DNA from: a plasmid
Reading direction: 5' to 3' (one strand)
Length of the DNA stretch: 64,000 nucleotides
Sequence record: NZ_CP104589.1
Positions within the stretch are counted from its first letter, which is position 1. The number at the start of each line of letters is the position of its first letter. A program made the translations under genes and the position numbers. Of this stretch, positions 4,478 through 30,553 are shown in pieces. Below the pieces are notes generated by a model, which had not been told where the DNA came from, ran no database searches, and saw only the letters and a list, made by a program, of their open reading frames with translations.

Positions 4478-4515
4478 AAGGGGCGAATAGAGAAAACGGA
4501 AAAAATCGTACGCTA
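4478..4515. repeat. 38-bp terminal inverted repeat (IRtnp) of the Tn21-subfamily transposon
   Basis: GGGGCGAATAGAGAAAACGGAAAAAATCGTACGCTAAG matches the Tn21/Tn501-type IR consensus; the tnpA stop lies inside it. Confidence 0.75.
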
Positions 4516-7479
4516 AGGTTTTCCGGGCAGCCTTAGCGGCCGAAACTTCCCGTCCTCCAGCCTGCGGCTCTGCCGCCAGACATAATCGCCGGTCAGATTG
4601 ATGTGCTCCCACCCCAGCGGCGACAGGTATTGCAGCAGCTCACCATCCACCGACTTCCCCGCATCGCCCATCGCCTGGGTGGCGCGCTCCAAGTACACCG
4701 TGTTCCACAACACGATGGCGGCCGTCACCAGGTTGAGGCCACTGGCCCGGTAGCGCTGCTGCTCGAAGCTCCGATCCCTGATCTCGCCGAGGCGGTTGAA
4801 GAACACCGCCCTGGCCAGGGAGTTGCGGGCTTCGCCCTTGTTCAGTCCAGCATGCACGCGCCGGCGCAGCTCGACGCTTTGCAACCAATCGAGGATGAAA
4901 AGCGTGCGCTCGATCCGGCCCAGCTCGCGCAGGGCCACGGCCAGGCCGTTCTGGCGCGGATAGCTGCCGAGCTTGCGCAGCATCAGCGAGGCGGTGACCG
5001 TGCCCTGCTTGATCGAGCTGGCCAGGCGCAGGATGTCGTCCCAATGGGCGCGGACGTGCTTGATGTTCAGGGTGCCGCCAACCATTGGGCGCAATGTCGG
5101 GTAGTCCTGGACGCTATTCGGAACATACAGCTTGGTTTCTCCGAGGTCGCGGATGCGCGGTGCGAAGCGGAAGCCCAGCAGGTGCATCAGGGCGAAGACA
5201 TGATCGGTGAAGCCAGCCGTGTCAGTGTAGTGCTCCTCGATCCGCAAGTCGGACTCGTGGTACAGCAGACCGTCGAGCACATAGGTAGAGTCGCGCACGC
5301 CGACATTCACCACGCGGGTGCTGAACGGTGCGTACTGGTCGGAGATGTGGGTGTAGAACAGCCGCCCCGGCTCGCTGCCGTACTTCGGGTTGACGTGGCC
5401 GGTGCTTTCGCCTCGACCACCCGCCCGGAAGCGCTGGCCATCGGAAGAAGAGGTCGTGCCGTCGCCCCAGTGAGCGGCGAAGGTATGACGGTACTGGTGG
5501 TTGACCAGCTCGGCCAGGGCCGCCGAGTAGGTTTCGTCTCGGATGTGCCAGGCTTGCAGCCAGGACAGCTTGGCGTAGGTCAGGCCGGGGCTCGACTCGG
5601 CCATCTTGGTCAGCCCGAGGTTGATTGCATCGCCCAGGATCGCTGACAGCAGCAATGTCCGGTCTTTGGCCTCGGCACCGTCCTTCAGGTGTGTGAAGTG
5701 GCGGCTGAAGCCCGTCCAGTCGTCCACGTCCATCAGCAGTTCGGTGATCTTGATGCGCGGCAGCAAATGGCTGGTCTGGTCGATCAGCGCCTGCGCGGTA
5801 TTGGGCACCGCGGAATCCAGCGGGGTGATCTTCAGCCCGGACTCGGTGAGGATGGCATCGGGCAGCTCGTTGTCCTTGGCCAGGCGGGTGACGGTGGCCA
5901 GCTGCTCGTCCAGCAGCTGCAAGCGCTCTTCCAGGTACTGGTTGCTGTTCGGGTTGATCGCCAGGGGCAGAGCCTGCGCATGCTTGAGCGCGGCGAACCT
6001 CTCTGCCGGCAGCAGGTAGTCGTCGAAGTCGCGGAACTGCCGCGAGCCCTTGACCCAGATGTCACCGGAGCGCAGCGCGTTCTTCAGCTCGGACAGGGCG
6101 CAGATTTCGTAGAAGCGCCGGTCGAGGCCTTCCGGGGTTATCACTAGCGGCTTCCAGCGCGGCTTGATGAAGGCGGTGGGCGCATCGGCCGGCACCTTGC
6201 GCAGGTTGTAGGCGTTCATCTCGCTCAGGGTCTGCACGGCTGCCAGCACGCCTTGCGCAGCCGGGGCAGCGCGCAGTTCCAGCACCTCCAGCAAGGCCGG
6301 CGTGTAACGGCGCAGAGTGGCGAAGTTCTCGCCGACCAGGTGCAGATGGTCGAAGCCTTCCGGCCGGGCCAGCAGCTCGGCCTCGCTGACGCTCTCGGTG
6401 AACTCGTCCCAGGGAATCACCGCCTCAATGGCGGCATAGGGATCGCTACCGCTTTCCTTGGCTTCCAGCAGAGCCTGGCCGATCTTCGAGTACAGGCGCA
6501 CCTTGTCGTTGATCGCCTTGCCCTGCTTCTGGAACTGCTGCTGATGCTTGTGCTTCGCGCTGCTGAACAGCTTGACCAGGATACGGTCGTGCAGATCGAC
6601 CAACTCATCAATCACCGTCGCGGTGCTCTCCAGCACCACGGCGGCCAGGGTCGCGTAGCGTCGCTGCGGCTCGAACTTGCCGAGGTCTTTGGGCGTCATC
6701 TGCCCACCCTCGCGGGCCAGCTTGAGCAGGCGGTTCTGGTGGATGTGTCGGCCCAGGCCTTCGGGCAAGTCCACCAGCTGAAATGTCTTCAGCCGCTCGA
6801 TGTGTTCGAGCATGTGGCGGGAGTTCGGTTTCAGCGGTGCCTGTCGCAGCCAGGTCAACCAGGTGATGCTGCTGCCGGCCTTGAGCTTCAACAGCTCGTC
6901 CAGCTTGGCCCGATGCGAGTCCGTGAGTGGTTCGACCAGGGCGCGGTAGACTCGGCGATTGGCCCGCGCAATGGCCTCCGAACAAGCTCGATCAATTACG
7001 CTCAACGCCGGCAGAATGCGCCGCTTCTGTCGCAGGCTCTCCAGGGCCTGACCGGCCAGCAGTAAGCCCTTGTCGGTCTGCTGGGCCAACTCGGTCAGCT
7101 CGCGCACCAGGGCGCGGAAGTCGGACAGGCCGAACGGGGCCAGTTGTAGGTAGGTGCGCAGTTCCTGGGCGTGCTCGCGGCGAGTCACGTCGCGTTCGCC
7201 GTACTTCAACCAACTCGCCGGGTCGGCCTGAACTTGCTTGGCCACCCACTGGATGACCGGCTCGGGCGGCTCGCTGTCGGTGCCCAACGCATAGCCGGGG
7301 TAGCGCAGCAGGCTGAGCTGCACCGCGAAGCCCAGGCGGTTGGCGTCGCCGCGCCGCTGGCGGATCAGCGACAGGTCGGAGTCGTTGAAGGTGTAGTAGC
7401 GGATCAGGTCATCCTGGCTTTCCGGCAACGCAAGCAAGGTGTCGCGCTCCGTAGCCGAGAGAATCGAGCGACGCGGCAT
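4513..7479 (-). CDS. tnpA: Tn21-subfamily Tn3-family transposase TnpA (988 aa)
   Basis: [31 protein letters not shown]... recalled as the Tn21/Tn1696-type TnpA; length 988 aa. Confidence 0.95.
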
Positions 7480-7482
7480 GGT

Positions 7483-8043
7483 TCAGTCGTCCTTGCGAAG
7501 GTACTGATAGAGGGTTTCTCGGCTGATGCCGAACTCGCGGGCGAGCTGCGCCTTCGGCTCGCCCGCAGCGGCCCGCTGCCGCAGCGTGATGGCTTGCTCG
7601 TCGGAGAGGGCTTTCTTGCGGCCCCGGTAGGCACCGCGCTGCTTGGCCAGGGCGATGCCCTCGCGCTGCCGCTCGCGAATCAGGGCGCGCTCAAACTCGG
7701 CAAAGGCCCCCATGACCGACAGCATCAGGTTGGCCATCGGCGAGTCCTCGCCGGTGAACACCAGGCCTTCCTTCAAGAACTCGATGCGCACACCGCGCTG
7801 GGTCAGCTTCTGCACCAGGCGGCGCAAATCATCGAGGTTTCGTGCCAGGCGATCCATGCTGTGCACCACCACGGTGTCGCCTTCGCGAACGAAACCGAGC
7901 ATGGCCTCCAGCTGGGGACGCTGGGTGTCCTTGCCCGAGGCTTTGTCGGTGAACAGCTTGCCGACCTCGACCTGTTCAAGTTGGCGTTCCGGGTTCTGGT
8001 CGAAGCTGCTGACCCGGACGTAACCGATGCGTTGTCCCTGCAA
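7483..8043 (-). CDS. tnpR: Tn21-type serine resolvase TnpR (TTG start, 186 aa)
   Basis: QGQRIGYVRVSSFDQNPERQLEQ... near-identical to Tn21 TnpR as recalled; the ORF-track N-terminal extension was rejected. Confidence 0.9.
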   Translation of the reverse strand: MQGQRIGYVRVSSFDQNPERQLEQVEVGKLFTDKASGKDTQRPQLEAMLGFVREGDTVVVHSMDRLARNLDDLRRLVQKLTQRGVRIEFLKEGLVFTGEDSPMANLMLSVMGAFAEFERALIRERQREGIALAKQRGAYRGRKKALSDEQAITLRQRAAAGEPKAQLAREFGISRETLYQYLRKDD

Positions 8044-8215
8044 GATGCCTCCATGGGCTGGATGGGCGGCAGGGCTTGCGTTGGTTTTTGGTTCCATTGC
8101 GCCCGAAGCCTTGAATTTGTCAGGCTGAAATCTATGACCTTGGCAAGCATGTGTCAAAGAATGTGAAAGCGGACTCTATTCTGACGGCGTGATGCGCCTT
8201 GCCTGACATCCAGTT
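8044..8215. promoter_or_regulatory. res region of the Tn21-like element, ending at the integron IRi; contains an IR-like fragment at about 8075-8105
   Basis: position between tnpR and IRi, consistent with an integron inserted into res. Confidence 0.45.
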
Positions 8216-8240
8216 TGTCGTTTTCAGAAGACGGCTGCAC
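8216..8240. repeat. class 1 integron IRi (25 bp)
   Basis: exact TGTCGTTTTCAGAAGACGGCTGCAC. Confidence 0.8.
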
Positions 8241-8417
8241 TGAACGTCAGAAGCCGACTGCACTATAGCAGCGGAGGGGTTGGATCCATCAGGCAACGAC
8301 GGGCTGCTGCCGGCCATCAGCGGACGCAGGGAGGACTTTCCGCAACCGGCCGTTCGATGCGGCACCGATGGCCTTCGCGCAGGGGTAGTGAATCCGCCAG
8401 GATTGACTTGCGCTGCC

Positions 8418-9431
8418 CTACCTCTCACTAGTGAGGGGCGGCAGCGCATCAAGCGGTGAGCGCACTCCGGCACCGCCAACTTTCAGCACATGCGTGTAAA
8501 TCATCGTCGTAGAGACGTCGGAATGGCCGAGCAGATCCTGCACGGTTCGAATGTCGTAACCGCTGCGGAGCAAGGCCGTCGCGAACGAGTGGCGGAGGGT
8601 GTGCGGTGTGGCGGGCTTCGTGATGCCTGCTTGTTCTACGGCACGTTTGAAGGCGCGCTGAAAGGTCTGGTCATACATGTGATGGCGACGCACGACACCG
8701 CTCCGTGGATCGGTCGAATGCGTGTGCTGCGCAAAAACCCAGAACCACGGCCAGGAATGCCCGGCGCGCGGATACTTCCGCTCAAGGGCGTCGGGAAGCG
8801 CAACGCCGCTGCGGCCCTCGGCCTGGTCCTTCAGCCACCATGCCCGTGCACGCGACAGCTGCTCGCGCAGGCTGGGTGCCAAGCTCTCGGGTAACATCAA
8901 GGCCCGATCCTTGGAGCCCTTGCCCTCCCGCACGATGATCGTGCCGTGATCGAAATCCAGATCCTTGACCCGCAGTTGCAAACCCTCACTGATCCGCATG
9001 CCCGTTCCATACAGAAGCTGGGCGAACAAACGATGCTCGCCTTCCAGAAAACCGAGGATGCGAACCACTTCATCCGGGGTCAGCACCACCGGCAAGCGCC
9101 GCGACGGCCGAGGTCTTCCGATCTCCTGAAGCCAGGGCAGATCCGTGCACAGCACCTTGCCGTAGAAGAACAGCAAGGCCGCCAATGCCTGACGATGCGT
9201 GGAGACCGAAACCTTGCGCTCGTTCGCCAGCCAGGACAGAAATGCCTCGACTTCGCTGCTGCCCAAGGTTGCCGGGTGACGCACACCGTGGAAACGGATG
9301 AAGGCACGAACCCAGTGGACATAAGCCTGTTCGGTTGGTAAGCTGTAATGCAAGTAGCGTATGCGCTCACGCAACTGGTCCAGAACCTTGACCGAACGCA
9401 GCGGTGGTAACGGCGCAGTGGCGGTTTTCAT
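8418..9431 (-). CDS. intI1: class 1 integron integrase IntI1 (337 aa)
   Basis: [30 protein letters not shown]... canonical IntI1. Confidence 0.97.
9316..9344 (+). promoter_or_regulatory. cassette promoter Pc, weak variant with TGN-10 (TGGACA-N17-TAAGCT preceded by TGG); P2 inactive (no GGG insertion)
   Basis: TGGACA at 9316-9321 and TTGGTAAGCT at 9335-9344; downstream TTGTTA-N14-TACAGT lacks the GGG insertion. Confidence 0.6.
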
Positions 9432-9499
9432 GGCTTGTTATGACTGTTTTTTTGTACAGTCTATGCCTCGGGCATCCAAGCAGCAAGCGCGTTACGCCG

Positions 9500-9576
9500 T
9501 GGGTCGATGTTTGATGTTATGGAGCAGCAACGATGTTACGCAGCAGGGCAGTCGCCCTAAAACAAAGTTAGCGCCC
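9500..9576. other. attI1 recombination site
   Basis: ...GCCCTAAAACAAAGTTAG immediately before the first cassette. Confidence 0.6.
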
Positions 9577-9974
9577 ATGGAAGGTATCAGCCACATCACG
9601 CTTATTGTCCGCGACCTCTCGCGCATGACCACCTTCCTTTGCGATGGTCTCGGTGCGCGAGAGGTTTATGACAGTGCTGGCCACAATTACTCGCTTTCCC
9701 GCGAGAAATTCTTTGTCCTTGGTGGCGTTTGGTTGGCCGCTATGGAGGGAGTGCCGCCATCTGAGCGCTCCTATCAGCATGTCGCCTTTCGGGTGAGTGA
9801 GTCAGATCTTGCCGTATATCAGGCAAGACTTGGGTCGCTGGGCGTGGAGATTCGCCCACCCAGGCCACGCGTGAATGGAGAGGGGCTGTCCCTGTACTTC
9901 TATGATTTTGACAACCATCTGTTTGAGCTGCACACCGGCACATTGGAGCAGCGCCTTGCCAGGTACGGAGCTGG

Positions 9975-9981
<7 letters not shown>
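9577..9981 (+). CDS. FosX/FosE-like fosfomycin resistance cassette (glyoxalase/VOC fold)
   Basis: MEGISHITLIVRDL...RPRVNGEGLSLYFYDFDNHLFELHTGTLEQRL matches the FosX family along its full length; starts 6 nt after the attI1 crossover. Confidence 0.8.
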
Positions 9982-10860
<879 letters not shown>

Positions 10861-10867
10861 CAGGCAG

Positions 10868-10944
10868 ATGCGGCATAACATGAAGTTGCAGCCGACCATC
10901 ACTCCGCTGCGCTCCGTTCTGGCGGCTGAACTTCGGCGTTAGGC
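10868..10944. other. attC of the blaVIM cassette
   Basis: ends in GTTAGGC followed by the canonical aacA4 cassette start ATCACAAAGTACAGCATC. Confidence 0.45.
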
Positions 10945-10962: not shown

Positions 10963-11517
10963 GTGACCAACAGCAACGATTCCGTCACACTGCGCCTCAT
11001 GACTGAGCATGACCTTGCGATGCTCTATGAGTGGCTAAATCGATCTCATATCGTCGAGTGGTGGGGCGGAGAAGAAGCACGCCCGACACTTGCTGACGTA
11101 CAGGAACAGTACTTGCCAAGCGTTTTAGCGCAAGAGTCCGTCACTCCATACATTGCAATGCTGAATGGAGAGCCGATTGGGTATGCCCAGTCGTACGTTG
11201 CTCTTGGAAGCGGGGACGGATGGTGGGAAGAAGAAACCGATCCAGGAGTACGCGGAATAGACCAGTCACTGGCGAATGCATCACAACTGGGCAAAGGCTT
11301 GGGAACCAAGCTGGTTCGAGCTCTGGTTGAGTTGCTGTTCAATGATCCCGAGGTCACCAAGATCCAAACGGACCCGTCGCCGAGCAACTTGCGAGCGATC
11401 CGATGCTACGAGAAAGCGGGGTTTGAGAGGCAAGGTACCGTAACCACCCCAGATGGTCCAGCCGTGTACATGGTTCAAACACGCCAGGCATTCGAGCGAA
11501 CACGCAGTGATGCCTAA
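10963..11517 (+). CDS. aacA4: aminoglycoside 6'-N-acetyltransferase AAC(6')-Ib (not the -cr variant: W102 and D179 retained)
   Basis: [36 protein letters not shown]...GDGWWEEE... Confidence 0.95.
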
Positions 11518-11597: not shown

Positions 11598-12398
11598 ATG
11601 AAAACATTTGCCGCATATGTAATTACTGCGTGTCTTTCAAGTACGGCATTAGCTAGTTCAATTACAGAAAATACGTTTTGGAACAAAGAGTTCTCTGCCG
11701 AAGCCGTCAATGGTGTTTTCGTGCTTTGTAAAAGTAGCAGTAAATCCTGCGCTACCAATAACTTAGCTCGTGCATCAAAGGAATATCTTCCAGCATCAAC
11801 ATTTAAGATCCCCAACGCAATTATCGGCCTAGAAACTGGTGTCATAAAGAATGAGCATCAGGTTTTCAAATGGGACGGAAAGCCAAGAGCCATGAAACAA
11901 TGGGAAAGAGACTTGAGCTTAAGAGGGGCAATACAAGTTTCAGCGGTTCCCGTATTTCAACAAATCGCCAGAGAAGTTGGCGAAGTAAGAATGCAGAAAT
12001 ATCTTAAAAAATTTTCATATGGTAACCAGAATATCAGTGGTGGCATTGACAAATTCTGGTTGGAGGGTCAGCTTAGAATTTCCGCAGTTAATCAAGTGGA
12101 GTTTCTAGAGTCTCTATTTTTAAATAAATTGTCAGCATCAAAAGAAAATCAGCTAATAGTAAAAGAGGCTTTGGTAACGGAGGCTGCGCCTGAATATCTT
12201 GTGCATTCAAAAACTGGTTTTTCTGGTGTGGGAACTGAGTCAAATCCTGGTGTCGCATGGTGGGTTGGTTGGGTTGAGAAGGGAACAGAGGTTTACTTTT
12301 TCGCCTTTAACATGGATATAGACAACGAAAATAAGTTGCCGCTAAGAAAATCCATTCCCACCAAAATCATGGCAAGTGAGGGCATCATTGGTGGCTAA
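11598..12398 (+). CDS. blaOXA: OXA-10-family class D beta-lactamase (266 aa)
   Basis: [51 protein letters not shown]...STFKIPN...; a variant relative to OXA-10 as recalled. Confidence 0.93.
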
Positions 12399-12452
12399 CA
12401 ATTCGCTGCAGGCGCGACGGCCCTGACGGGCCGCGGCCTGAGCTCAAACGTT
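12399..12452. other. attC of the blaOXA cassette
   Basis: TAACAATTCG...GTTAAAC followed by the canonical aadA1 cassette start CATCATGAGGGAAGC. Confidence 0.4.
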
Positions 12453-12459
12453 AAACATC

Positions 12460-13251
12460 ATGAGGGAAGCGGTGATCGCCGAAGTATCGACTCAACTATC
12501 AGAGGTAGTTGGCGTCATCGAGCGCCATCTCGAACCGACGTTGCTGGCCGTACATTTGTACGGCTCCGCAGTGGATGGCGGCCTGAAGCCACACAGTGAT
12601 ATTGATTTGCTGGTTACGGTGACCGTAAGGCTTGATGAAACAACGCGGCGAGCTTTGATCAACGACCTTTTGGAAACTTCGGCTTCCCCTGGAGAGAGCG
12701 AGATTCTCCGCGCTGTAGAAGTCACCATTGTTGTGCACGACGACATCATTCCGTGGCGTTATCCAGCTAAGCGCGAACTGCAATTTGGAGAATGGCAGCG
12801 CAATGACATTCTTGCAGGTATCTTCGAGCCAGCCACGATCGACATTGATCTGGCTATCTTGCTGACAAAAGCAAGAGAACATAGCGTTGCCTTGGTAGGT
12901 CCAGCGGCGGAGGAACTCTTTGATCCGGTTCCTGAACAGGATCTATTTGAGGCGCTAAATGAAACCTTAACGCTATGGAACTCGCCGCCCGACTGGGCTG
13001 GCGATGAGCGAAATGTAGTGCTTACGTTGTCCCGCATTTGGTACAGCGCAGTAACCGGCAAAATCGCGCCGAAGGATGTCGCTGCCGACTGGGCAATGGA
13101 GCGCCTGCCGGCCCAGTATCAGCCCGTCATACTTGAAGCTAGACAGGCTTATCTTGGACAAGAAGAAGATCGCTTGGCCTCCCGCGCAGATCAGTTGGAA
13201 GAATTTGTTCACTACGTGAAAGGCGAGATCACCAAGGTAGTCGGCAAATAA
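12460..13251 (+). CDS. aadA1: aminoglycoside 3''-adenylyltransferase AadA1
   Basis: MREAVIAEVSTQLSEVVGVIERHLEPTLLAVHLYGSAVDGGLKPHSDIDLLVTV... matches AadA1 over its full length. Confidence 0.95.
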   Translation: MREAVIAEVSTQLSEVVGVIERHLEPTLLAVHLYGSAVDGGLKPHSDIDLLVTVTVRLDETTRRALINDLLETSASPGESEILRAVEVTIVVHDDIIPWRYPAKRELQFGEWQRNDILAGIFEPATIDIDLAILLTKAREHSVALVGPAAEELFDPVPEQDLFEALNETLTLWNSPPDWAGDERNVVLTLSRIWYSAVTGKIAPKDVAADWAMERLPAQYQPVILEARQAYLGQEEDRLASRADQLEEFVHYVKGEITKVVGK

Positions 13252-13379
13252 TGTCTAAAACAAAGTTAGATGCCAGATTTGGCGTTGCGTATGCTCACAG
13301 AAAATCGACAGCCGCAAGACTGTTTTTGGCAACTCATAGCCACCACTATTTCTCCTTCATACCGTAGAGGAGATTGCAC

Positions 13380-13712
13380 GTGAAGAACTGGCTCTTTCTG
13401 GCTATTGCAATATTTGGTGAGGTCGTCGCAACTTCCGCACTGAAGTCCAGCCATGGATTCACCAAGTTAGTTCCTTCTGTTGTAGTTGTGGCTGGCTACG
13501 GGCTTGCGTTCTATTTCCTCTCTCTCGCACTCAAGTCCATCCCGGTCGGCATTGCTTATGCTGTTTGGGCTGGCCTCGGCATCGTACTTGTGGCAGCTAT
13601 CGCTTGGATCTTCCATGGCCAGAAACTAGACTTGTGGGCGTTCGTTGGCATGGGACTTATCGTTAGTGGCGTCGCCGTTCTAAATCTGCTATCCAAGGTC
13701 AGCGCACATTGA
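13380..13712 (+). CDS. qacF: QacF/QacH-type SMR quaternary-ammonium efflux protein (GTG start, 110 aa)
   Basis: [33 protein letters not shown]...[10 protein letters not shown] matches QacF/H; GAGGAG RBS 7 nt upstream; IS26 begins 6 bp after the stop. Confidence 0.85.
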
Positions 13713-13718
13713 TCGGGC

Positions 13719-14538
13719 GGCACTGTTGCAAATAGTCGGTGGTGATAAACTTATCATCCCCTTTTGCTGATGGAGCTGCACATGAACCCATTCAAAGGCC
13801 GGCATTTTCAGCGTGACATCATTCTGTGGGCCGTACGCTGGTACTGCAAATACGGCATCAGTTACCGTGAGCTGCAGGAGATGCTGGCTGAACGCGGAGT
13901 GAATGTCGATCACTCCACGATTTACCGCTGGGTTCAGCGTTATGCGCCTGAAATGGAAAAACGGCTGCGCTGGTACTGGCGTAACCCTTCCGATCTTTGC
14001 CCGTGGCACATGGATGAAACCTACGTGAAGGTCAATGGCCGCTGGGCGTATCTGTACCGGGCCGTCGACAGCCGGGGCCGCACTGTCGATTTTTATCTCT
14101 CCTCCCGTCGTAACAGCAAAGCTGCATACCGGTTTCTGGGTAAAATCCTCAACAACGTGAAGAAGTGGCAGATCCCGCGATTCATCAACACGGATAAAGC
14201 GCCCGCCTATGGTCGCGCGCTTGCTCTGCTCAAACGCGAAGGCCGGTGCCCGTCTGACGTTGAACACCGACAGATTAAGTACCGGAACAACGTGATTGAA
14301 TGCGATCATGGCAAACTGAAACGGATAATCGGCGCCACGCTGGGATTTAAATCCATGAAGACGGCTTACGCCACCATCAAAGGTATTGAGGTGATGCGTG
14401 CACTACGCAAAGGCCAGGCCTCAGCATTTTATTATGGTGATCCCCTGGGCGAAATGCGCCTGGTAAGCAGAGTTTTTGAAATGTAAGGCCTTTGAATAAG
14501 ACAAAAGGCTGCCTCATCGCTAACTTTGCAACAGTGCC
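13719..14538 (+). mobile_element. IS26 (820 bp) with 14-bp IRs GGCACTGTTGCAAA
   Basis: exact IS26 left-end and right-end sequences; length 820 bp. Confidence 0.93.
13782..14486 (+). CDS. tnp26: IS26 transposase Tnp26 (IS6 family, 234 aa)
   Basis: MNPFKGRHFQRDIILWAVRWYCKYGISYRELQEMLAERGVNVDHSTIYRWVQRYAPE... Confidence 0.93.
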   Translation: MNPFKGRHFQRDIILWAVRWYCKYGISYRELQEMLAERGVNVDHSTIYRWVQRYAPEMEKRLRWYWRNPSDLCPWHMDETYVKVNGRWAYLYRAVDSRGRTVDFYLSSRRNSKAAYRFLGKILNNVKKWQIPRFINTDKAPAYGRALALLKREGRCPSDVEHRQIKYRNNVIECDHGKLKRIIGATLGFKSMKTAYATIKGIEVMRALRKGQASAFYYGDPLGEMRLVSRVFEM

Positions 14539-14725
14539 GCTTTGCAAGGGCAAAGCCCGCGTGACCATCGACACGGCGTTGATTCTCGGTAAGGCCTTTG
14601 GCACAGGCCCCGATTACTGGCTGGAGCTGCAACAAGCGGTTGATATTTGGGACGCGCTGCACAGCGAAAAACGAAAGGAACGGCTCGAAAGCATCGTGCC
14701 GTTGATGAAAATGGTAGCAGCATAA
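14539..14725 (+). pseudogene. 3' fragment of an XRE/HigA-family antitoxin gene truncated by IS26
   Basis: ...ALILGKAFGTGPDYWLELQQAVDIWDAL... is the typical HigA C-terminal helix pattern; the N-terminal part is replaced by IS26. Confidence 0.55.
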
Positions 14726-14909
14726 AAAGCGAAGCCCCGATGCTTTCCAACTTGGCGGGCGGAAAAGCGATCAGGGCTACATCACAGTGTGGGCGGTTTC
14801 GTTAGCAACTTGGCGGGAGCTAACGAGGTGGCCGATTGCCTAGCGGGGCATGGGGCACACGTGTCTATTATAGCGCGGGTGCCCCTCTAATCAAGTAGTA
14901 GGGGTTACA

Positions 14910-15629
14910 GTGGCACAACAACAAGCGGCACAACTGGCGCTATTCGACCAGACACAAGAGGCCAACACGTATCACGACGCCGGCCGGCGCGGGTTCTTCT
15001 CGCTGCTCACCAGCAAGGACAACGGCGACAAGCGGCAGTCCTCCCACCCTCTCAGCGAAATGGCTACCGTCCTGGGCATGGTGGACTCGACCCGTGACAC
15101 CTGGCTGTCACAAGCCGAGTTCTTCCGCCCTAATCGCCGCGTGGTCAATCTGCTACGTATTGGGCTGATGTTCGTGGACCTCGATACCTACCGGGTGCCC
15201 TGGGCGACAGGGCGAACGCCAGAGGAACAAGCAGCCGGCGTTATCTACTTCTGTCAAGCCGAAGGCCTGCCCCTGCCTTCGCTGATGATCTATTCCGGCC
15301 GAGGCCTGCAACTGAAATGGTTGCTCGATGCGCCAATCCCTCGCCAGGCCCTGCCCCGCTGGAACGCCTGCCAACGCCACCTGGTAGACAAGCTGGCCGA
15401 GCTGGGCGCCGATCCTGCCGCCAAGGATGCCAGCCGCGTGTTGCGCCTGGTCGATACGGTCAACACCAAGAGCGGGAACATCTGCCGCGTGGTCCACGTC
15501 CAGGAGGAAGCCGGCGAACCCGCCCGCTACAACTTCGAGTATCTTTGCGAAATGCTGCTGCCCGTGGCTCGCTGGGACATTGAAGCGCAACAAAAGCGCC
15601 GGCGCGACCGACAACTAACCCTGATACCT
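14910..15629 (+). pseudogene. hypothetical protein gene interrupted by the Tn5563-like transposon; a possible 3' remainder lies at 21885-21986
   Basis: 278-aa ORF whose last codons are encoded by the transposon IR; the third frame after the right IR continues for about 34 codons. Confidence 0.5.
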
Positions 15630-15669
15630 GGGGTTTGGGGAGCAATGGAACCAAAAACCAACGTAAGCC

Positions 15670-16602
15670 CTACCAACGCTTTTCGGTGTCTTCTTCCCAG
15701 GCGCCCATCTCGACAAAACAGTTGCGCATGTCGGCCTCCTGGCTGATCTCGGTCAGCAGGTCATGCACGCTCTTGTCCAGCTCATCGTCGCTCCGATACG
15801 GAATGGTCAACTCATAGTGGCCGGCATCCAGCCGCTTCATGCCATAGGGCTCCAGGCAGTAGCGCTCAATGTTCTCCGTGGCCCGCTTCCGGCCGCGCAC
15901 GAACTTGCTGTTATTCACCACCGCGAGGCGCAGGGTGACGGTGGCCACCCGCTCGGCGGCGGGCGGCTCTGCCGGCGACGCGGCCGAAGGCTGCTGGTCG
16001 CGTGACCTGGCGCTCTTCTGGTACGCGCCGATCTCGACACCACGGTGGCGCAGGTAGCTGTACAGCGTGCTCTTGGAGATGTGCAGCTTCTCGCCGATCG
16101 CGCTGACGCTCAGGCGACCTTCGCGGTAGAGGGTTTCGGCCGCCATGGCGGTGGCCTCAGCCTTGGCTGGCAGGCCCTTGGGACGGCCACCGATCCGGCC
16201 ACGCGCCCGTGCGGCCGACAGACCCGCCTGAGTCCGCTCGCGGATCAGCTCGCGCTCGAACTCCGCCAGCGAGGCGAACAGGTTGAACACCAGGCGGCCT
16301 TGGGCGTGGGTGGTGTCGATGGGGTCATTCAGGCTCTGTAAGCCGACCTTGCGCTCTGCCAGCTCGCCGACCAACTCGACCAGGTGCTTGAGGGAACGCC
16401 CAAGGCGATCCAGCTTCCAGATCACCACGGCATCACCCGGCCGCACGTTGGCCAGCAGTTTGTCCAACTCCGGCCGGGCGCTTTTCGCGCCGCTGGCGAT
16501 GTCTTGGTAGATGCGTTCGCACCCGGCCTGTTTCAGGGCATCGACTTGTAGGTCGGCTTTCTGATCCCGAGTGCTCACTCGCGCATAACCGATCTTCATC
16601 AA
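15670..16602 (-). CDS. tnpR: serine resolvase with long C-terminal extension (310 aa; ISXc5/Tn5044-type long TnpR)
   Basis: MMKIGYARVSTRDQKADLQVDALKQAGCERIYQD... resolvase N-terminal domain plus HTH, followed by a 120-aa extension. Confidence 0.85.
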   Translation of the reverse strand: MMKIGYARVSTRDQKADLQVDALKQAGCERIYQDIASGAKSARPELDKLLANVRPGDAVVIWKLDRLGRSLKHLVELVGELAERKVGLQSLNDPIDTTHAQGRLVFNLFASLAEFERELIRERTQAGLSAARARGRIGGRPKGLPAKAEATAMAAETLYREGRLSVSAIGEKLHISKSTLYSYLRHRGVEIGAYQKSARSRDQQPSAASPAEPPAAERVATVTLRLAVVNNSKFVRGRKRATENIERYCLEPYGMKRLDAGHYELTIPYRSDDELDKSVHDLLTEISQEADMRNCFVEMGAWEEDTEKRW

Positions 16603-16800
16603 AAGTACTGTTTACTCGACTACGTTAGTAATAGTTGAACTTTGATTAAGCGTACCAGTTATTTGAACCGTAGCGCGGGGAGCTTAACGAACCGAGCCAT
16701 TCCTCGATAGAGTTCGGCAAAACCTTCGTTTTGTCGAACCATTGCATCGCCCTTTGTGATTGGCGTATAAACACACAAACACCTATTAGCGGAGAACGCT

Positions 16801-17040
16801 ATGAATACCATTCGCTGGAATGTCGCCGTCTCGGCCGACACCGACCAGTCGCTTCGGATGTTTCTGGCCAGCCAGGGCGGCGGCCGTAAGGGCGACCTGT
16901 CGCGCTTCATCGAAGAAGCGGTACGGGCACACATCCTGGAGCTGAGCGCTGAGCAGGCCAAGGCCGCTAACGCCCATCTGAGTGAGGCAGAATTGACCAA
17001 CGCGGTTGACGAAGCGCTCGACTGGGCACGTAAGCGCTGA
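16801..17040 (+). CDS. putative ribbon-helix-helix antitoxin (79 aa)
   Basis: small ORF directly upstream of and overlapping (ATGA) the PIN gene; lies between res/tnpR and tnpA as in Tn3-family toxin-antitoxin modules. Confidence 0.6.
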   Translation: MNTIRWNVAVSADTDQSLRMFLASQGGGRKGDLSRFIEEAVRAHILELSAEQAKAANAHLSEAELTNAVDEALDWARKR

Positions 17041-17450
17041 TGCGGGTCGTGTTGGATACCAACATCCTGTTCAGCGCCCTGATCTCGCCACATGGCGCGC
17101 CCGATGCGATCTACCGTGCCTGGCGGGCGGCGCGTTTCGAGGTGGTGACCTCGCGGATGCAACTCGATGAAATTCGTCGAGCCAGCCGCTATCCCAAGCT
17201 TCAGGCCATCCTACAGCCCGCCAAGGTGGGCGCCATGATCAATAACCTGCAACGGGCTGTGGTACTGGAGCGCCTGACCATCGAGGTCGAAGCCGATGAT
17301 CCGGATGACTCGTTTTTGCTGGCCATGGCCTTGGCGGGCGATGCGGACTACCTGGTAACCGGTGATCGCCGCGCCGGCCTGCTGCAACGCGGGCACATCG
17401 AACGCACGCGGATCGTCACGCCCGCCGTGTTCTGCGTCGAGGTGCTGTGA
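17040..17450 (+). CDS. PIN-domain toxin (VapC-like, 136 aa)
   Basis: MRVVLDTNILFSAL...EVVTSRMQLDEIRRA...LVTGD: the acidic PIN residues are present. Confidence 0.75.
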   Translation: MRVVLDTNILFSALISPHGAPDAIYRAWRAARFEVVTSRMQLDEIRRASRYPKLQAILQPAKVGAMINNLQRAVVLERLTIEVEADDPDDSFLLAMALAGDADYLVTGDRRAGLLQRGHIERTRIVTPAVFCVEVL

Positions 17451-17453
17451 TCA

Positions 17454-20447
17454 ATGCCGGTCGGTTTTCTGACTCAAGAGCAACGCGACGGTTTTGGCCG
17501 CTATGTTGATTCGCCCAGCCGTGAAGAGCTGGAACGTTACTTCCACCTGAGCGATGAAGACCGTGAAGCCATCCAGGTGCTGCGGGGTAACCATAACCGT
17601 CTGGGTTATGCCGTTCTGCTGACCACCGTCCGCTTCGTTGGCGTTCTGCCGGACAAGCCCGCCGCCGTGCCGGTGGAAGTCCTGCAGGTGCTTTGCCGAC
17701 AACTGGCGATTCCAGACCCCGACTGCCTCCAGCGCTATAGCGATCATCGCCGCTGGATACATGCCACCGATATTCAGAACCGCTTTGGCTATCGTCATTT
17801 CACCGATCCGGGCATCGGCTTTCGCTTGAGCCGCTGGCTGTATGCCCTCTGCTGGACGGGCACCGACCGGCCGGGAGTGCTGTTTGAGCGAGCCACCTCG
17901 TGGCTGTTCACACAGAAAGTCCTCCTGCCTGGTGTGTCTCAACTAGAGCGCTTTATCGCCCAGTTGCGCAGTCGGGTCGAAGAACGCCTCTGGTTTACGC
18001 TGGGCCGCAGCGTGACTGAGGAACAGCGATTGCAACTGCAAGACTTGCTGACGGTGGCCGAAGGCAACCGCAGCTCCCGGCTGGATCAATTGCGCTCCGG
18101 CCCGGTCATGGTCAGTGGCCCCGCGTTGATTCGGGCACTGCGCCGGCTCGATGACGTGCGCGGCATCGGCATCACCTTGCCGGCGGCGGCGCACATCCCT
18201 CCCAGCCGTATCGCCGCCCTGGCCCGCTTCGCCAACACGGCCAAGGTCACCGCGATTAATCGGCTGCCGGCGTCGCGGCGGATGGCGACACTGGTGGCCT
18301 TCGCACTCTGCCTGGAGGCGACTGCGCACGACGACGCACTGGAAGTCCTGGAGGCCTTGCTGCGCGACCTGTTCAGCAACGCGGAGAAGGCCGACAAGAA
18401 AGCCCGCATGCGCAGCCTGAAAGACCTGGATCGGTCGGCCGCGACGCTCGCCGCCGCGTGCAAGGTCGTGCTGGACAGCTCGATCAGCGATGACAACGTG
18501 CGCGCCCGGCTGTTCAACGACCTGCCGAGGACCACCCTGGAAAAGGCCCTGGAAGAGGTCAACGCGCTGATCCGCCCGGTAGATGACGTCTATTTTCTTG
18601 CATTGGAAGCGCGCTACCGCAGCGTGCGCCGCTTCCTGCCCGACCTGCTCAAGCACATCCGCTTCGGCTTCAGCCCGGCCGGCAAGGGCGTGGCGGCTAG
18701 TCTGGAGTGGCTGCAACTGAACCTGCCGCGCCGGAAGCCAGAGGATGACGCGCCGCAGGAGATCGTGGCCAAGGCTTGGCAGAAGCACATCACCCGCGAA
18801 GATGGCTCCCTCGACATGGGTGCCTATGTGTTCTGCACGCTCGATGCGCTGCGCACGGCCCTGCGCCGCCGCGATGTCTTCGTCTCGCCCAGTTGGCGCT
18901 ATGCCGACCCGCGCCTTGGCCTGCTCGACGGTGCCGAATGGCTGGCGGCGCGACCGATCATCTGCCGGTCACTGGGCCTGACCATCGACGCCAAAACCAC
19001 CCTGGACGCCTTGTCCGTCGAGCTGGATGCAACCTGGCTGGCAGTAGCCGCGCGCCTGCCCGACAACCCGGCGATTCAACTGAGCGAGAACACCGAGGGC
19101 AAGACCGAACTGTCGCTCGGGGCGCTGGACAAGCTGGACGAGCCCTGCTCGTTGCTGCAACTGCGGGCGGCCGTGTCTGACCTGATGCCGCGTGTCGATC
19201 TGCCGGAAATCCTCTTGGAAATCGCCGCCCGCACTGGCTTTTCCGAGGCCTTCACCCATGTCTCCGAACGCAATGCACGCGCCGACAACCTGGTCACCAG
19301 CCTCTGCGCGGTGCTGTTGGGCGGGGCCTGCAACACCGGCCTGGAGCCCTTGATCCGCACCGACAACCCGGCGCTGCGCCGTGACCGGCTGTCCTGGGTC
19401 AGCCAGAATTATATCCGCGACGACACCCTGTCAGCGGCTAACGCCATCCTGGTCGGAGCGCAAAGCCAACTGGAACTGGCCCAAGTCTGGGGTGGCGGCG
19501 AGGTCGCCTCCGCCGATGGCATGCGCTTCGTCGTACCGGTGCGCACCGTGCATGCCGGCCCCAATCCGAAGTATTTCGGCACCGGCCGGGGTGTCACCTG
19601 GTACAACCTGATTTCCGACCAATTCTCCGGCCTCAACGCCATCACCGTGCCCGGCACGCTGCGCGACAGCCTGGTGTTGCTGGCGGTCGTGCTGGAACAG
19701 CAGACCGAGTTGCAGCCGACGCAAATCATGACCGACACCGGGGCCTACAGCGATGTGGTGTTCGGGCTCTTCCGCCTACTTGGCTACCACTTCAGTCCGC
19801 GGCTGGCCGATGTCGGCGGTACCCGCTTCTGGCGCACGCGCCCGGACGCGGACTACGGCAAGCTCAACGGGCTGGCCCGCCAGTCGGTCAAACTCGACCT
19901 GATCGCCGAGCACTGGGACGACCTGCTGCGCCTGGCCGGCTCGCTCAAACTCGGCCGGGTGCCGGCGACTGGCATCATGCGCACGCTGCAAACGGGAGAT
20001 AGACCCACCCGGCTGGCCCAGGCGCTGGCCGAATTCGGGCGGATCGAAAAGACTCTGCACACGTTGACCTATATCGACGACGAGTCCAAGCGCCGCGCCA
20101 CCCTGACCCAGTTGAACCGAGGCGAAGGCCGGCACAGCCTGGCCCGCGCCGTGTTCCACGGCAAACGCGGCGAGCTCCGCCAGCGCTACCGCGAAGGCCA
20201 GGAAGACCAGCTCGGTGCTCTGGGCCTGGTGGTGAACATCATCGTGCTGTGGAACACCCTCTACATGACGGCGGCCGTGGAACGGCTCAAGCAGCACGGC
20301 TATCCAGTGCTGGAAGAGGATTTGGCCCGGCTATCGCCGCTGATCTACGAGCACATCAACATGCTCGGGCGGTATTCCTTTGCGGTACCGGAAGAAGTTG
20401 CGCGCGGCGAGCTGCGGCCACTGCGTAATCCAGACGACGACCTGTGA
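17454..20447 (+). CDS. tnpA: Tn3-family transposase TnpA (997 aa)
   Basis: Tn3-family DDE transposase architecture; shares blocks with the Tn21 TnpA in this window. Confidence 0.93.
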   Translation: MPVGFLTQEQRDGFGRYVDSPSREELERYFHLSDEDREAIQVLRGNHNRLGYAVLLTTVRFVGVLPDKPAAVPVEVLQVLCRQLAIPDPDCLQRYSDHRRWIHATDIQNRFGYRHFTDPGIGFRLSRWLYALCWTGTDRPGVLFERATSWLFTQKVLLPGVSQLERFIAQLRSRVEERLWFTLGRSVTEEQRLQLQDLLTVAEGNRSSRLDQLRSGPVMVSGPALIRALRRLDDVRGIGITLPAAAHIPPSRIAALARFANTAKVTAINRLPASRRMATLVAFALCLEATAHDDALEVLEALLRDLFSNAEKADKKARMRSLKDLDRSAATLAAACKVVLDSSISDDNVRARLFNDLPRTTLEKALEEVNALIRPVDDVYFLALEARYRSVRRFLPDLLKHIRFGFSPAGKGVAASLEWLQLNLPRRKPEDDAPQEIVAKAWQKHITREDGSLDMGAYVFCTLDALRTALRRRDVFVSPSWRYADPRLGLLDGAEWLAARPIICRSLGLTIDAKTTLDALSVELDATWLAVAARLPDNPAIQLSENTEGKTELSLGALDKLDEPCSLLQLRAAVSDLMPRVDLPEILLEIAARTGFSEAFTHVSERNARADNLVTSLCAVLLGGACNTGLEPLIRTDNPALRRDRLSWVSQNYIRDDTLSAANAILVGAQSQLELAQVWGGGEVASADGMRFVVPVRTVHAGPNPKYFGTGRGVTWYNLISDQFSGLNAITVPGTLRDSLVLLAVVLEQQTELQPTQIMTDTGAYSDVVFGLFRLLGYHFSPRLADVGGTRFWRTRPDADYGKLNGLARQSVKLDLIAEHWDDLLRLAGSLKLGRVPATGIMRTLQTGDRPTRLAQALAEFGRIEKTLHTLTYIDDESKRRATLTQLNRGEGRHSLARAVFHGKRGELRQRYREGQEDQLGALGLVVNIIVLWNTLYMTAAVERLKQHGYPVLEEDLARLSPLIYEHINMLGRYSFAVPEEVARGELRPLRNPDDDL

Positions 20448-20459
20448 TCCCCCTAAACG

Positions 20460-20672
20460 CTATGAGCAACACCCAAGCTGCTGCTGGATCGGCGGGCACT
20501 TCACCGAGCCGAACGAACAGAAAACGCAGCAATCCCCTGGGTTGGGGCGCAGCAGCGCCTTGCAGTTGCTGCACTCGTAATAGAACTGGCAGGCGTCCGT
20601 GGGCATGGTTTCCGGCTTGGCGAAGCCGCAGCGCGGGCAAGTCAGCACGGACTCAAGGACAATGGCGCTCAT
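20460..20672 (-). CDS. Cys-rich GDCC-motif putative metal-binding protein (70 aa)
   Basis: CPRCG...CSNC...GDCCVFCS; small proteins of this kind are found in mer loci. Confidence 0.55.
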   Translation of the reverse strand: MSAIVLESVLTCPRCGFAKPETMPTDACQFYYECSNCKALLRPNPGDCCVFCSFGSVKCPPIQQQLGCCS

Positions 20673-20679
20673 CGTGACC

Positions 20680-20955
20680 TCACTTCTGCACTGTGGAGGG
20701 GTATCCCGCGTTCGCGGTCGCCTCAGTCAGTGCCTCGGGCTGGGCCTTATCGGGATCGTAGGTGACGGTCGCCGTCTTCTGGTCGAAATTGACCTGGACG
20801 TCACTCACGCCGGACACCTTCTCCAGCGACTTCTTGACCGTGATCGGACAGAGTCCGCACGTCATGTTCTGCACGTCGAGCGTGACGGTTTTCGGGGGAG
20901 CCGCCAGCGCCACGAAGGGCAAGGCGAAAAGCACGGCGATCAGCAGTTTGCGCAT
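20680..20955 (-). CDS. merP: periplasmic mercury-binding protein MerP
   Basis: signal peptide plus the GMTCxxC-type motif (QNMTCGLCPITVKKSLEKV). Confidence 0.85.
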   Translation of the reverse strand: MRKLLIAVLFALPFVALAAPPKTVTLDVQNMTCGLCPITVKKSLEKVSGVSDVQVNFDQKTATVTYDPDKAQPEALTEATANAGYPSTVQK

Positions 20956-20967
20956 GGTTAATCTCCT

Positions 20968-21324
20968 TCAGTAGAACAGCGGGGCGAGCCACGGCACGGC
21001 CAATAGGCCGAGCAGCAGCACGCTGACGATCCAGAACACGAGTCGCTGTCGCACGAGCGTGCGCGGATCGGCGCAGGGTGTACCTGGCGTACAAACCTGT
21101 GGCACCAGGTAGAGCTTGCGGAATGCCAATCCCAGGAACAGTAGAGTCAACCCGATTAAGAGGGGGCGTAGTGGCTCCATCATGGTCAGAGCGCCCACCC
21201 ACGTACCGCCGACACCGAGTGCCAACAGCACCAGTGGCCCGACACAGCACACCGACGCACCGATGGCGGTCAGCGAACTCGCGACCAGCGAGCCTTTCCC
21301 GGTGAGTTGCATCCCCATTCCCAT
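20968..21324 (-). CDS. merT: mercuric ion transporter MerT
   Basis: CCVGPLVLLALG first helix Cys pair plus a second Cys pair; typical MerT topology. Confidence 0.85.
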   Translation of the reverse strand: MGMGMQLTGKGSLVASSLTAIGASVCCVGPLVLLALGVGGTWVGALTMMEPLRPLLIGLTLLFLGLAFRKLYLVPQVCTPGTPCADPRTLVRQRLVFWIVSVLLLGLLAVPWLAPLFY

Positions 21325-21362
21325 CTCCTGAGCCTGATTGCCTAGGTGCTATTCTAAACTCC

Positions 21363-21381
21363 GTACCAAAGTACGGAATCA
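21363..21381. promoter_or_regulatory. MerR operator dyad (CCGTAC-N4-GTACGG) in the merR/merT divergent promoter
   Basis: CTCCGTACCAAAGTACGGAA between merT and merR. Confidence 0.5.
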
Positions 21382-21389
21382 AGGAGAAA

Positions 21390-21791
21390 GTGATGGCCAC
21401 AGAGCTGACCATTGGCAAGCTGGCAGACGCCGCCGGGGTGAACGTCGAGACGATCCGCTACTACCAGCGACGCGGGCTGCTGGATGAACCAGCCAAACCC
21501 TTGGGTGGCCATCGGCGCTATCCGGTGGACATGGTGAAGCGACTGCGTTTCATCAAGCGGGCTCAGGCGCTGGGTTTCACGCTCTCGGAAGTCGGTGGAC
21601 TGCTGACGCTGGATGAGTCGTGCGCCTGTGCCGAAACGCGAGCACGGGCTGCACGCAAGCTCGCGTTGATCGAGCAGAAGATGGCCGACTTGGTCGTCAT
21701 GCAGCAACTGTTAGGCGAACTGGTGCAGCAATGTGATGCGGGAGACGGCGGAACGATCTGCCCGATCATCGAGGCACTGATCAGAGAGTAA
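21390..21791 (+). CDS. merR: MerR-family metal-responsive regulator
   Basis: N-terminal HTH LTIGKLADAAGVNVETIRYYQRRGLL plus C-terminal Cys residues. Confidence 0.8.
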   Translation: MMATELTIGKLADAAGVNVETIRYYQRRGLLDEPAKPLGGHRRYPVDMVKRLRFIKRAQALGFTLSEVGGLLTLDESCACAETRARAARKLALIEQKMADLVVMQQLLGELVQQCDAGDGGTICPIIEALIRE

Positions 21792-22018
21792 TGCCTGGCG
21801 GGTGAGCTGGAGATCGGAAAGCCCCTTTACGGTGGGATTCAGAGCTTACGTTGGTTTTTGGTTCCATTGCTCCCCAAACCCCACCACCTGGCCAGCGGCA
21901 TCTATGATGACCGGCCAATCACGCTGCGGTGGCCAGCACGGCGGACGGTAGTTCGGCGCATCAGGAATCGCTAGGGGCGAGTCGATGCCGAGGCCAAGTT
22001 CGGAAAGAATATTTTTCG

Positions 22019-23509: not shown

Positions 23510-23517
23510 CACCGAGA

Positions 23518-24845: not shown

Positions 24846-24853
24846 CACCGAGA

Positions 24854-25085
24854 AGCGACTTCCGCCACCAGCAAGGTCGTCAGTCATGTGCTCATGCAGC
24901 TGCGTCACCAGCTCGAAACGTTCCGGCAAGGGACTGCCGAGTTCGCCCTGCGCGATCTGGCGGCCCACATGCTTCACCTTTGCTGCTGCACCTCCGCGAA
25001 ACAGCAGCGGCCGGAGGTCCCAGGGCGTTTCAGTGGCCCCATACTCAAGCATCGGGAAAGTGAGGTCGAATTCGGAACTATCCAT
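24854..25085 (-). pseudogene. tyrosine recombinase B, N-terminal part (start ATG overlaps the stop of recombinase A: ATGGATAG)
   Basis: MDSSEFDLTFPMLEYG...; frame analysis across the IS insertion. Confidence 0.5.
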
Positions 25086-26367: not shown

Positions 26368-26416
26368 TCAACGCCCCTGGGACGCTTAACAATGTCCATA
26401 GATAGAACTCAATAGC

Positions 26417-27177: not shown

Positions 27178-27185
27178 TGCTGATA

Positions 27186-27201
27186 CTGTCTATATATACA
27201 G
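27186..27201. promoter_or_regulatory. LexA/SOS box 9 bp upstream of umuD
   Basis: CTGTCTATATATACAG versus the consensus CTGT-N8-ACAG. Confidence 0.6.
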
Positions 27202-27347
27202 CACCAGTCTACCTTCTGCTGACGCATCCAGGAAGTCAGGGAGAATTTTCTTCCTGGAATTCCTTTGCCGGCGGCCTTGTTCAGGCTTGGGATTTATGGA
27301 TGCGATGTGATCCTAGATCCATATCCAGCCACTAAGAAAACCACACC

Positions 27348-27750: not shown

Positions 27751-27811
27751 CCGCTTCCGGTTTGGACTTATGCAGACTGCCCAGCGGCTGCTGGGCAATC
27801 TCGCCAGGTGA

Positions 27812-30551: not shown

Positions 30552-30553
30552 CC

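Follow-up and report, generated by a model that had tools for sequence, protein, structure and literature searches.

Some integron gene cassettes have lost their attC site and carry a fragment of attI in its place. Such cassettes are listed as type ii by Partridge et al. 2009 and were named “unusual ΔattI-type gene cassettes” by Gonzales Machuca et al. (Sci Rep 2026; PMC12901181), who report 96 ΔattI1 cassettes in 1,685 class 1 integrons and give 5'-AAACAAAGTTRRRY-3' as the minimal ΔattI1 consensus. Nearly all of them (90/96) carry the -11 variant, in which the G↓TT crossover is preceded by 11 nt of attI1. The commonest is blaOXA-10-ΔattI1-11, with 65 of the 96 catalogued cases, and Table S1 of that study also contains aacA4-aadA1-ΔattI1-11-blaOXA-9 (In907, the arrangement of Tn1331, whose 'attI1*' junction is credited there to Ramirez et al. 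2008) along with several aadA6-, aadA10-, aadA2-, aadA16-, and aadA24-ΔattI1-11 cassettes.

How do such cassettes arise, and can they still move? According to the same study, the origin of ΔattI sites is largely unknown. The model it quotes from Partridge 2000 invokes a reaction between the L box of attI1 and the R'' box of an attC (L × R''), which has never been reconstituted experimentally; for blaOXA-10 and aadA6, a requirement for a structurally defective attC has been proposed (PMC12901181). A ΔattI1-11 site downstream of an ORF permits low-rate excision by IntI1 in vivo—4% for aadB-ΔattI1-11, with excision of the Tn1331 aadA1-ΔattI1-11 likewise below canonical—while insertion of ΔattI1-11 cassettes into attI1 is about as efficient as that of canonical cassettes. 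When ΔattI precedes the ORF, the cassette is not excisable (PMC12901181).

Here we analyze a 64,000-nucleotide stretch of plasmid NZ_CP104589.1 (hereafter, the window), which contains a class 1 integron whose last two cassettes are the streptomycin-resistance cassette aadA1 and qacL (Table 1). The junction between them is a ΔattI1-11 site, which makes this aadA1 an unusual ΔattI1-type gene cassette and thus a member of a catalogued class. A short-site aadA1 was already known; what is new here is the downstream partner, qacL, together with the aadA1 allele, and aadA1-ΔattI1-11-qacL is not among the arrays of Table S1 of PMC12901181.

Table 1. Features of the integron, with window coordinates and the basis of each assignment
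Feature	Position	Strand	Basis
intI1, complete class 1 integron integrase (337 aa)	8418..9431	-	ORF list; NCBIfam integron integrase, 797 bits (cutoff 435)
Intact attI1, ending ...GTCGCCCTAAAACAAAG↓TTAGCG, crossover between 9567 and 9568	9490..9573	+	Sequence; reference copy of the 15-mer (9557-9571)
fosE cassette (CDS 9577-9981) with its own attC	9568..10029	+	NCBIfam FosX/FosE/FosI, 199.6 bits (cutoff 170)
blaVIM-84 cassette (CDS 10060-10860), attC normal	10030..10940	+	NCBIfam VIM, 590.7 bits
aacA4 / aac(6')-Ib4 CDS	10963..11517	+	NCBIfam AAC(6')-Ib, 434 bits; annotated in pWTJH36
blaOXA-101 CDS (OXA-10 family)	11598..12398	+	NCBIfam OXA-10 family, 618 bits; pWTJH36 annotation
blaOXA-101 attC, complete, GGCTAACAATTCG...CAAACG↓TTAAAC	12393..12455	+	Sequence; fold of the bottom strand
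aadA1 CDS, TAA stop at 13249-13251	12460..13251	+	NCBIfam AadA1, 597.6 bits (cutoff 587)
GTCTAA, remnant of the aadA1 attC R'' box (inverse core, GTCTAAC)	13253..13258	+	Alignments with canonical attC and attI1
ΔattI1-11, CTAAAACAAAG, 11/11 nt identical to attI1 positions -11 to -1	13255..13265	+	Alignments; definition and consensus of PMC12901181
qacL cassette from the TTAGATGCC boundary; CDS 13380-13712, GTG start; without attC	13266..13718	+	NCBIfam QacL, 227 bits (cutoff 205)
IS26	13719..14538	+	820 bp 100% identical to the IS26 of the sul3-type comparator (L002); IS6-family transposase, 275.6 bits

Structure of the aadA1-qacL Junction

Reading from attI1, the cassettes are fosE, blaVIM-84, aacA4, blaOXA-101, aadA1, and qacL, followed by IS26; all gene identities in the array lie above the NCBIfam curated cutoffs. 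The final gene had been called qacF in a preliminary description of this DNA, made from the sequence alone, but it is qacL: besides its score against the QacL model, it is 100% identical to AMRFinder qacL (pWTJH36), whereas true qacF cassettes are only ~92% identical to it. The left inverted repeat of IS26 begins 6 nt past the qacL stop codon, and a comparison of this end with pWTJH36 shows that IS26 has replaced the qacL attC and the 3'-CS.

What lies between the two genes? Past the aadA1 stop codon come a T, GTCTAA (13253–13258), AACAAAG (13259–13265), and TTAGATGCC (13266–13274)—the last being the usual start of qacL, as found elsewhere after the aadB attC, after the aadA1 attC, or directly after attI1—and then the qacL 5' UTR, up to the GTG start at 13380. 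Positions 13258–13271 read AAACAAAGTTAGAT, and the 11 nt upstream of G↓TT match the window's own attI1. The 15-mer CTAAAACAAAGTTAG has exactly two copies in the window, one in attI1 (9557–9571) and one at the junction (13255–13269), against a chance expectation of ~0.05 per window even with 2 mismatches tolerated. The match of 15 of 16 nt to the end of attI1 that had been reported is therefore right, the 15-mer being exact and the base before it, attI1 position -12, being T at the junction vs. C in attI1; it is this difference that defines the -11 variant. CTAA (13255–13258) is common to the attI1 L box and the aadA1 R'' box, and the breakpoint falls somewhere inside it; only AACAAAG (13259–13265) is unambiguously attI1-derived.

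As a canonical comparator we used the sul3-type integron of Salmonella pSE08-00436-1 (locus L002), in which aadA1, its attC, and qacL are adjacent. In the alignment, the 60-bp aadA1 attC (GTCTAACAATTCG...CTCAAGCG↓TTAGATGCC) is missing from the window, which is a net 41 bp shorter, and AACAAAG, a string not present in the aadA1 attC, stands in for it. The folds agree: the bottom strand of the canonical aadA1 attC reaches -18.8 kcal/mol (z -3.7) and that of the OXA-101 attC (window 12393–12462) -17.8 kcal/mol (z -3.6), vs. -0.9 kcal/mol (z -0.4) for the junction remnant. The absence of the canonical attC from aadA1, noted in the preliminary description, is thus confirmed, with no hairpin left, and this aadA1 is not a canonical cassette, which would have the 60-bp attC, its R''/L''...L'/R' boxes, and the bottom-strand hairpin.

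It has instead the features of the ΔattI1 class: a known ORF whose attC is missing beyond R'' (only GTCTAA is kept), an attI1 3' end that fits AAACAAAGTTRRRY in place of that attC, and a position within an array, with intI1 and attI1 upstream and the next cassette beginning at the site's TTRRRY. The involvement of attI1 that had been suspected is accordingly borne out, the junction being an attI1-derived replacement of the aadA1 attC that agrees with both the definition and the consensus of ΔattI1-11. A cassette fusion, proposed at the same time, does not apply in the strict sense (ORF fusion or internal deletion of an attC; Partridge type i), because AACAAAG is foreign, the aadA1 stop is kept, and qacL keeps its 5' UTR and start.

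Distribution of the Junction and Its Closest Relatives

How rare is this combination? Among 72,556 plasmids, aadA1-ΔattI1-11-qacL was found in two, pWTJH36 and pWTJH6, both IncP-2 megaplasmids of Pseudomonas aeruginosa from one Wuhan hospital. A search for the same junction in other integrons, as had been suggested, thus led to two sibling P. aeruginosa megaplasmids only. None of 5,426 complete Escherichia coli genomes contains the junction; in these, aadA1-qacL occurs in the canonical form only. Exact junction patterns had 0 matches in a contig set with one genome per species, in which a shorter 20-mer gave a single chance match, located where a gene begins in an AT-rich Tenericutes metagenome-assembled genome (MAG). 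JGI metagenomes were scanned twice, once with the specific junction and once with the general aadA1-ΔattI1 end, and gave 0 matches both times.

The two siblings carry blaVIM-85 and share an identical junction; their array is 99.95% identical to that of the window. The single SNP relative to pWTJH36, at 10408, falls in VIM codon 117, which encodes Asp in the window and Asn in VIM-85. Unlike the window, pWTJH36 has no fosE and still carries the qacL attC and qacEΔ1-sul1; BLAST against comparison locus L001 likewise marks the fosE region (9571–10028) as extra in the window. A published blaVIM-84 integron is described as 'derived from In2021', with fosE upstream of blaVIM-84 and IS26 replacing qacEΔ1-sul1 (PMC10580930). 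The window array matches that integron, and Asp at codon 117 fits the definition of VIM-84 given there. In the main text of that paper aadA1 is named 'ant1', the term 'attC' is absent, and 'qac' appears only as two mentions of qacEΔ1, so the paper comments on neither qacL nor the junction.

Which known arrays come closest? One is Tn1331/In907, where aadA1, again without attC, ends in the identical GTCTAA plus AACAAAG↓TT. Read directly from Tn1331 (L004), the junction is GGCAAATAATGTCTAAAACAAAG↓TTATGC; the left side, GGCAAATAATGTCTAAAACAAAG, is identical to the window's, and the next cassette is blaOXA-9 (TTATGC...) vs. qacL (TTAGAT...) in the window. Within the final 120 bp of aadA1, three sites distinguish the alleles: G, ΔAAG, and G in Tn1331 vs. 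A, AAG, and C in the window. The settings differ as well—a Tn3-family transposon in Enterobacterales vs. a Tn1403-associated integron in P. aeruginosa—and the window has neither the Tn1331 allele nor the downstream blaOXA-9 that together mark the Tn1331 lineage. The Tn1331 form of aadA1-ΔattI1-11 is present in ~565 PLSDB plasmids. The preliminary description had considered that the pair might be a standard arrangement of a catalogued short-attC aadA1 and a qacF/H cassette that naturally begins in this way; half of this held, as the short aadA1 site is indeed catalogued (In907/Tn1331), and the gene that follows it here is qacL, not qacF.

The architecture is equally that of blaOXA-10-ΔattI1-11-aadA1 (In53/In834-type; L003), where R''-CTAA is followed by AACAAAG↓TT and the next cassette (GGTGGCTAAAACAAAG↓TTAAAC); there blaOXA-10 bears ΔattI1-11, whereas in the window OXA-101 keeps a complete attC and aadA1 bears the site. 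Sul3-type integrons (...cmlA1-aadA1-qacL(qacH)-IS440-sul3) share both cassettes and their order, with an identical aadA1 and a qacL 1 SNP apart, but, unlike the window, have the full 60-bp aadA1 attC between the two. This canonical aadA1-attC-qacL occurs in ~770 plasmids and 395 E. coli genomes, in none of which is the ΔattI1 form found.

The window's aadA1 allele, identical to that of the sul3-type integrons and of In2123, is the 'C' allele, present in 1,032 of 2,346 aadA1 plasmids. In In2123 it carries a ΔattI2-11 end (GTCTAATAAAATG↓TTAACC). The qacL cassette matches those of pWTJH36 and of attI1-aadB-qacL arrays at 100% identity; one of these arrays adjoins Tn1403-type genes in Pseudomonas putida pPC9. 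Arrays with qacL as first cassette, directly after attI1, occur in at least 23 plasmids, and the inspected copies are 2 SNPs from the window's qacL.

Origin of the Site

The explanation that best accounts for these observations as a whole, to which we give a probability of roughly 0.85, is that the ΔattI1-11 site arose by IntI1-mediated recombination between the attI1 L box and the R'' box of the aadA1 attC, probably independently of Tn1331. The L box (CCTAAAAC) and the R'' box (GTCTAAC) would have recombined within their common CTAA; the junction string expected from such an L × R'' reaction is GTCTAAAACAAAG. By direct comparison, the window, Tn1331, and OXA-10 all have the breakpoint within CTAA. 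Two routes can be envisaged. In one, aadA1 located beside attI1 would yield a circular aadA1-ΔattI1-11 cassette, which would then be inserted before qacL by a normal G↓TT reaction; in the other, the aadA1 attC would react directly with an integron in which qacL follows attI1. Possible substrates exist, both as attI1-qacL integrons and as the attI1-aadB-qacL arrays with an identical qacL. Under either route, blaOXA-101, aacA4, blaVIM, and lastly fosE would have been added at attI1 afterwards.

Was the event separate from the one behind the aadA1-ΔattI1-11-blaOXA-9 of Tn1331? The comparison of sequences suggests that it probably was, given the three allele differences, the lack of intermediates, and the occurrence of the 'C' allele with an attI2-derived end. 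No intermediate aadA1 allele is attached to ΔattI1-11 in the 72,556 plasmids, where 100% matches come from pWTJH36 and pWTJH6 only, and the 'C' allele with ΔattI2-11 in In2123 implies that the aadA1 R'' box has been used at least three times and is a recurrent partner. The three differences are closely spaced, and homologous exchange between aadA1 copies could erase or create them.

The main competitor is that IntI1 excised the ready-made aadA1-ΔattI1-11 of Tn1331 and inserted it before qacL, the allele being changed later by homologous recombination. The identical left side of the junction, the great abundance of the Tn1331 unit (~565 plasmids), and the published assays in which ΔattI1-11 cassettes could be excised and reinserted (PMC12901181) all speak for such a transfer. 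We nevertheless consider it unlikely: the three allele differences lie no more than 120 bp from the junction; replacement of the allele would require a crossover within the ~75 bp that separate the C/G site (13183) from the junction; no intermediate alleles were seen; and the identical end is found on other aadA-family and on non-aadA cassettes, so the event recurs.

Less probable still, and by a clear step, is a deletion independent of any recombinase—replication slippage or microhomology at CTAA—that joined the aadA1 attC to a downstream attI1-qacL, for example in tandem integrons. Such a deletion would leave its breakpoint inside the 4-nt CTAA, as observed, and integrons with qacL first do exist; yet a tandem-integron precursor was not found, and the -11 breakpoint is repeated in 90 catalogued arrays with varied upstream cassettes and has an analogue with attI2. 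Such recurrence is what recognition of the L and R'' boxes would produce, rather than random microhomology. The breakpoint is placed only to CTAA, and at this resolution a recombinase-independent microhomology deletion would look identical to the L × R'' reaction.

A simple deletion inside the aadA1 attC, with a coincidental likeness to attI1—one reading of the deletion raised in the preliminary description—is effectively refuted by the alignments: although truly internally deleted aadA1 attCs exist elsewhere (GTCTAAC-TCAAGCGTTAGATGC, ~99 plasmids, e.g., L003), AACAAAG is foreign to the aadA1 attC, so that no single deletion gives the observed junction, and the 15-nt match to attI1 is exact, with the low chance expectation given above.

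We also considered in situ conversion of a sul3-type aadA1-attC-qacL array, as its aadA1 is identical and its qacL 1 SNP apart. It was rejected as unnecessary, because the 'C' allele is common, the window's qacL is 100% identical to that of the attI1-aadB-qacL arrays and not to that of sul3 arrays, and after such a swap the array would begin with a hybrid attI1/attC, whereas attI1 is intact in the window.

Returning to the L × R'' reaction, a bolder version of it would be a recent, independent, de novo event on a fully proficient, hairpin-forming aadA1 attC in a Tn1403-borne P. aeruginosa integron. We regard this version as possible, though on balance doubtful. If it were true, the reaction would need no structurally defective attC; an internal ΔattI1-11 could give an array a second, weak attI-like entry point partway along its length; and attI1-qacL, aadA1-attC-qacL, and aadA1-ΔattI1-11-qacL would form a natural trio of before-and-after substrates for the Partridge 2000 model.

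Mobility and Expression of aadA1 and qacL

Can the two cassettes still move? The hybrid site keeps the R box GTTAGAT and most of the L box (TCTAAAAC vs. CCTAAAAC in attI1), and DR1/DR2 and the hairpin are absent from it. On these grounds—R box and most of the L box kept, no DR1/DR2, no hairpin—it should be a weak substrate for IntI1. The aadA1 cassette may therefore be mobile at low frequency through a reaction between the OXA-101 attC and ΔattI1-11, with the intact intI1 as the source of integrase. The +6 positions downstream of the window's site (TTAGAT) and its flanks differ from those of the constructs tested in PMC12901181.

The qacL cassette is immobile: it has ΔattI1-11 as its upstream site and has lost its attC to IS26, the latter being mostly responsible. 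The earlier view of aadA1 and qacL as one non-mobilizable unit consequently stands for qacL, which is fixed, and is not supported for aadA1, given the published low-rate excision of ΔattI1-11 cassettes by IntI1.

The stem-loops of attC sites attenuate the expression of downstream cassette genes (attC-mediated attenuation). It is conceivable that, with the 60-nt attC stem-loop gone, qacL is expressed more readily by read-through. A scan of positions 13150–13450 found no promoter-like sites, and the sole feature in a terminator scan was a weak minus-strand terminator-like hairpin within the qacL 5' UTR; nothing relevant is created by the junction.

Implications

The feature itself is ordinary—a known kind of cassette in a rare new combination, with modest practical consequences and a sequence already public in the sibling records. 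Its qacL and its junction were overlooked in the published description of the integron (PMC10580930), and integron finders based on attC would report aadA1 and qacL as a single cassette or fail to place the boundary between them. The weak ΔattI1-11 site and the truncation by IS26 tend to hold aadA1-qacL in place as the distal part of the VIM-84 carbapenemase array. For the ΔattI-type cassettes as a family, the junction is another apparently independent natural example, and the third kind on aadA1 alone; it supports recurrent natural recombination of the attC R'' box with the attI L box.

Cassette array

How does the integron array of the window differ from those of pWTJH36 and pWTJH6, the sibling Pseudomonas aeruginosa megaplasmids with the same aadA1-ΔattI1-11-qacL junction? 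The first cassette, adjoining attI1, is fosE, which is missing from these otherwise near-identical arrays, and this absence is consistent with fosE being the cassette most recently gained. Over 3.7 kb of array the sole nucleotide difference from pWTJH36 is at position 10408 (G in the window, A in pWTJH36), within VIM codon 117, which encodes Asp in the window and Asn in pWTJH36. Because this codon specifies Asp, the window gene is blaVIM-84 and not blaVIM-85.

The blaOXA-101 cassette (OXA-10 family) retains a full attC that folds well. Since this attC is complete, while most catalogued ΔattI1 cases (65 of 96; PMC12901181) have the ΔattI1-11 end on the blaOXA-10 cassette, the window is the mirror image of the usual OXA-10-ΔattI1-11-aadA1 arrays.

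The array ends at IS26, whose left end begins 6 nt past the qacL stop codon; the qacL attC and the entire 3'-CS are gone at this point, whereas pWTJH36 has both. The sequence on the right-hand side of IS26 does not look like integron DNA; it resembles the 3' part of a small ORF that has been truncated and whose frame ends at 14725. The flanks of IS26 (window 13713-13732 and 14525-14725) show no evident 8-bp target duplication, and IS26 therefore probably brought about a deletion.

Two further kinds of unusual aadA1 end occur in other plasmids. In the Klebsiella pneumoniae AR_0107 plasmid (locus L003, 2524-2550), the aadA1 attC is internally deleted to GTCTAAC-TCAAGCGTTAGATGC; this end, also present in about 99 other plasmids and usually placed downstream of blaOXA-10-ΔattI1-11, is of Partridge type i (ORF fusion or internal attC deletion) and differs from that of the window. 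In Providencia stuartii pM2-1 (In2123; locus L007, 825-850), the aadA1 gene is of the window's allele and has at its end a remnant of attI2, GTCTAATAAAATG|TTAACC, with dfrA1 as the next gene. In2123 holds this class 2 attI fragment inside a class 1 array.

Flanking and remaining sequence

The Tn1403-type genes are 100% identical to those of many Pseudomonas megaplasmids; for the mercury-resistance transposon, plasmids of P. aeruginosa and P. putida hold copies with 100% identity.

Features of the window
Feature	Position	Remark
Tn1403-type tnpA/tnpR	within 4478-8417	left of integron
fosE	9568-10029
blaOXA-101 attC	12393-12455
278-aa ORF	14910-15746	right of IS26; no Pfam match
Tn3-family mercury-resistance transposon	within 14540-21900	beyond 278-aa ORF; tnpA, recombinase, PIN toxin, merR/merT
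Its tnpA	17454-20447	997 aa
IS256/Mutator-family transposase ORF	23554-24780
Tyrosine-recombinase-like protein	25078-26367	weak likeness
Fic-domain protein	27812-29014
DUF4942 protein	37314-39044
UvrD-like helicase	53211-54770

Beyond 22,000, the search of the plasmid collection reached 39,500, and no close match spans 22,000-39,500. There are no tRNAs in 22000-64000. This part of the window looks like a piece of a chromosomal island or of an unsampled plasmid backbone.
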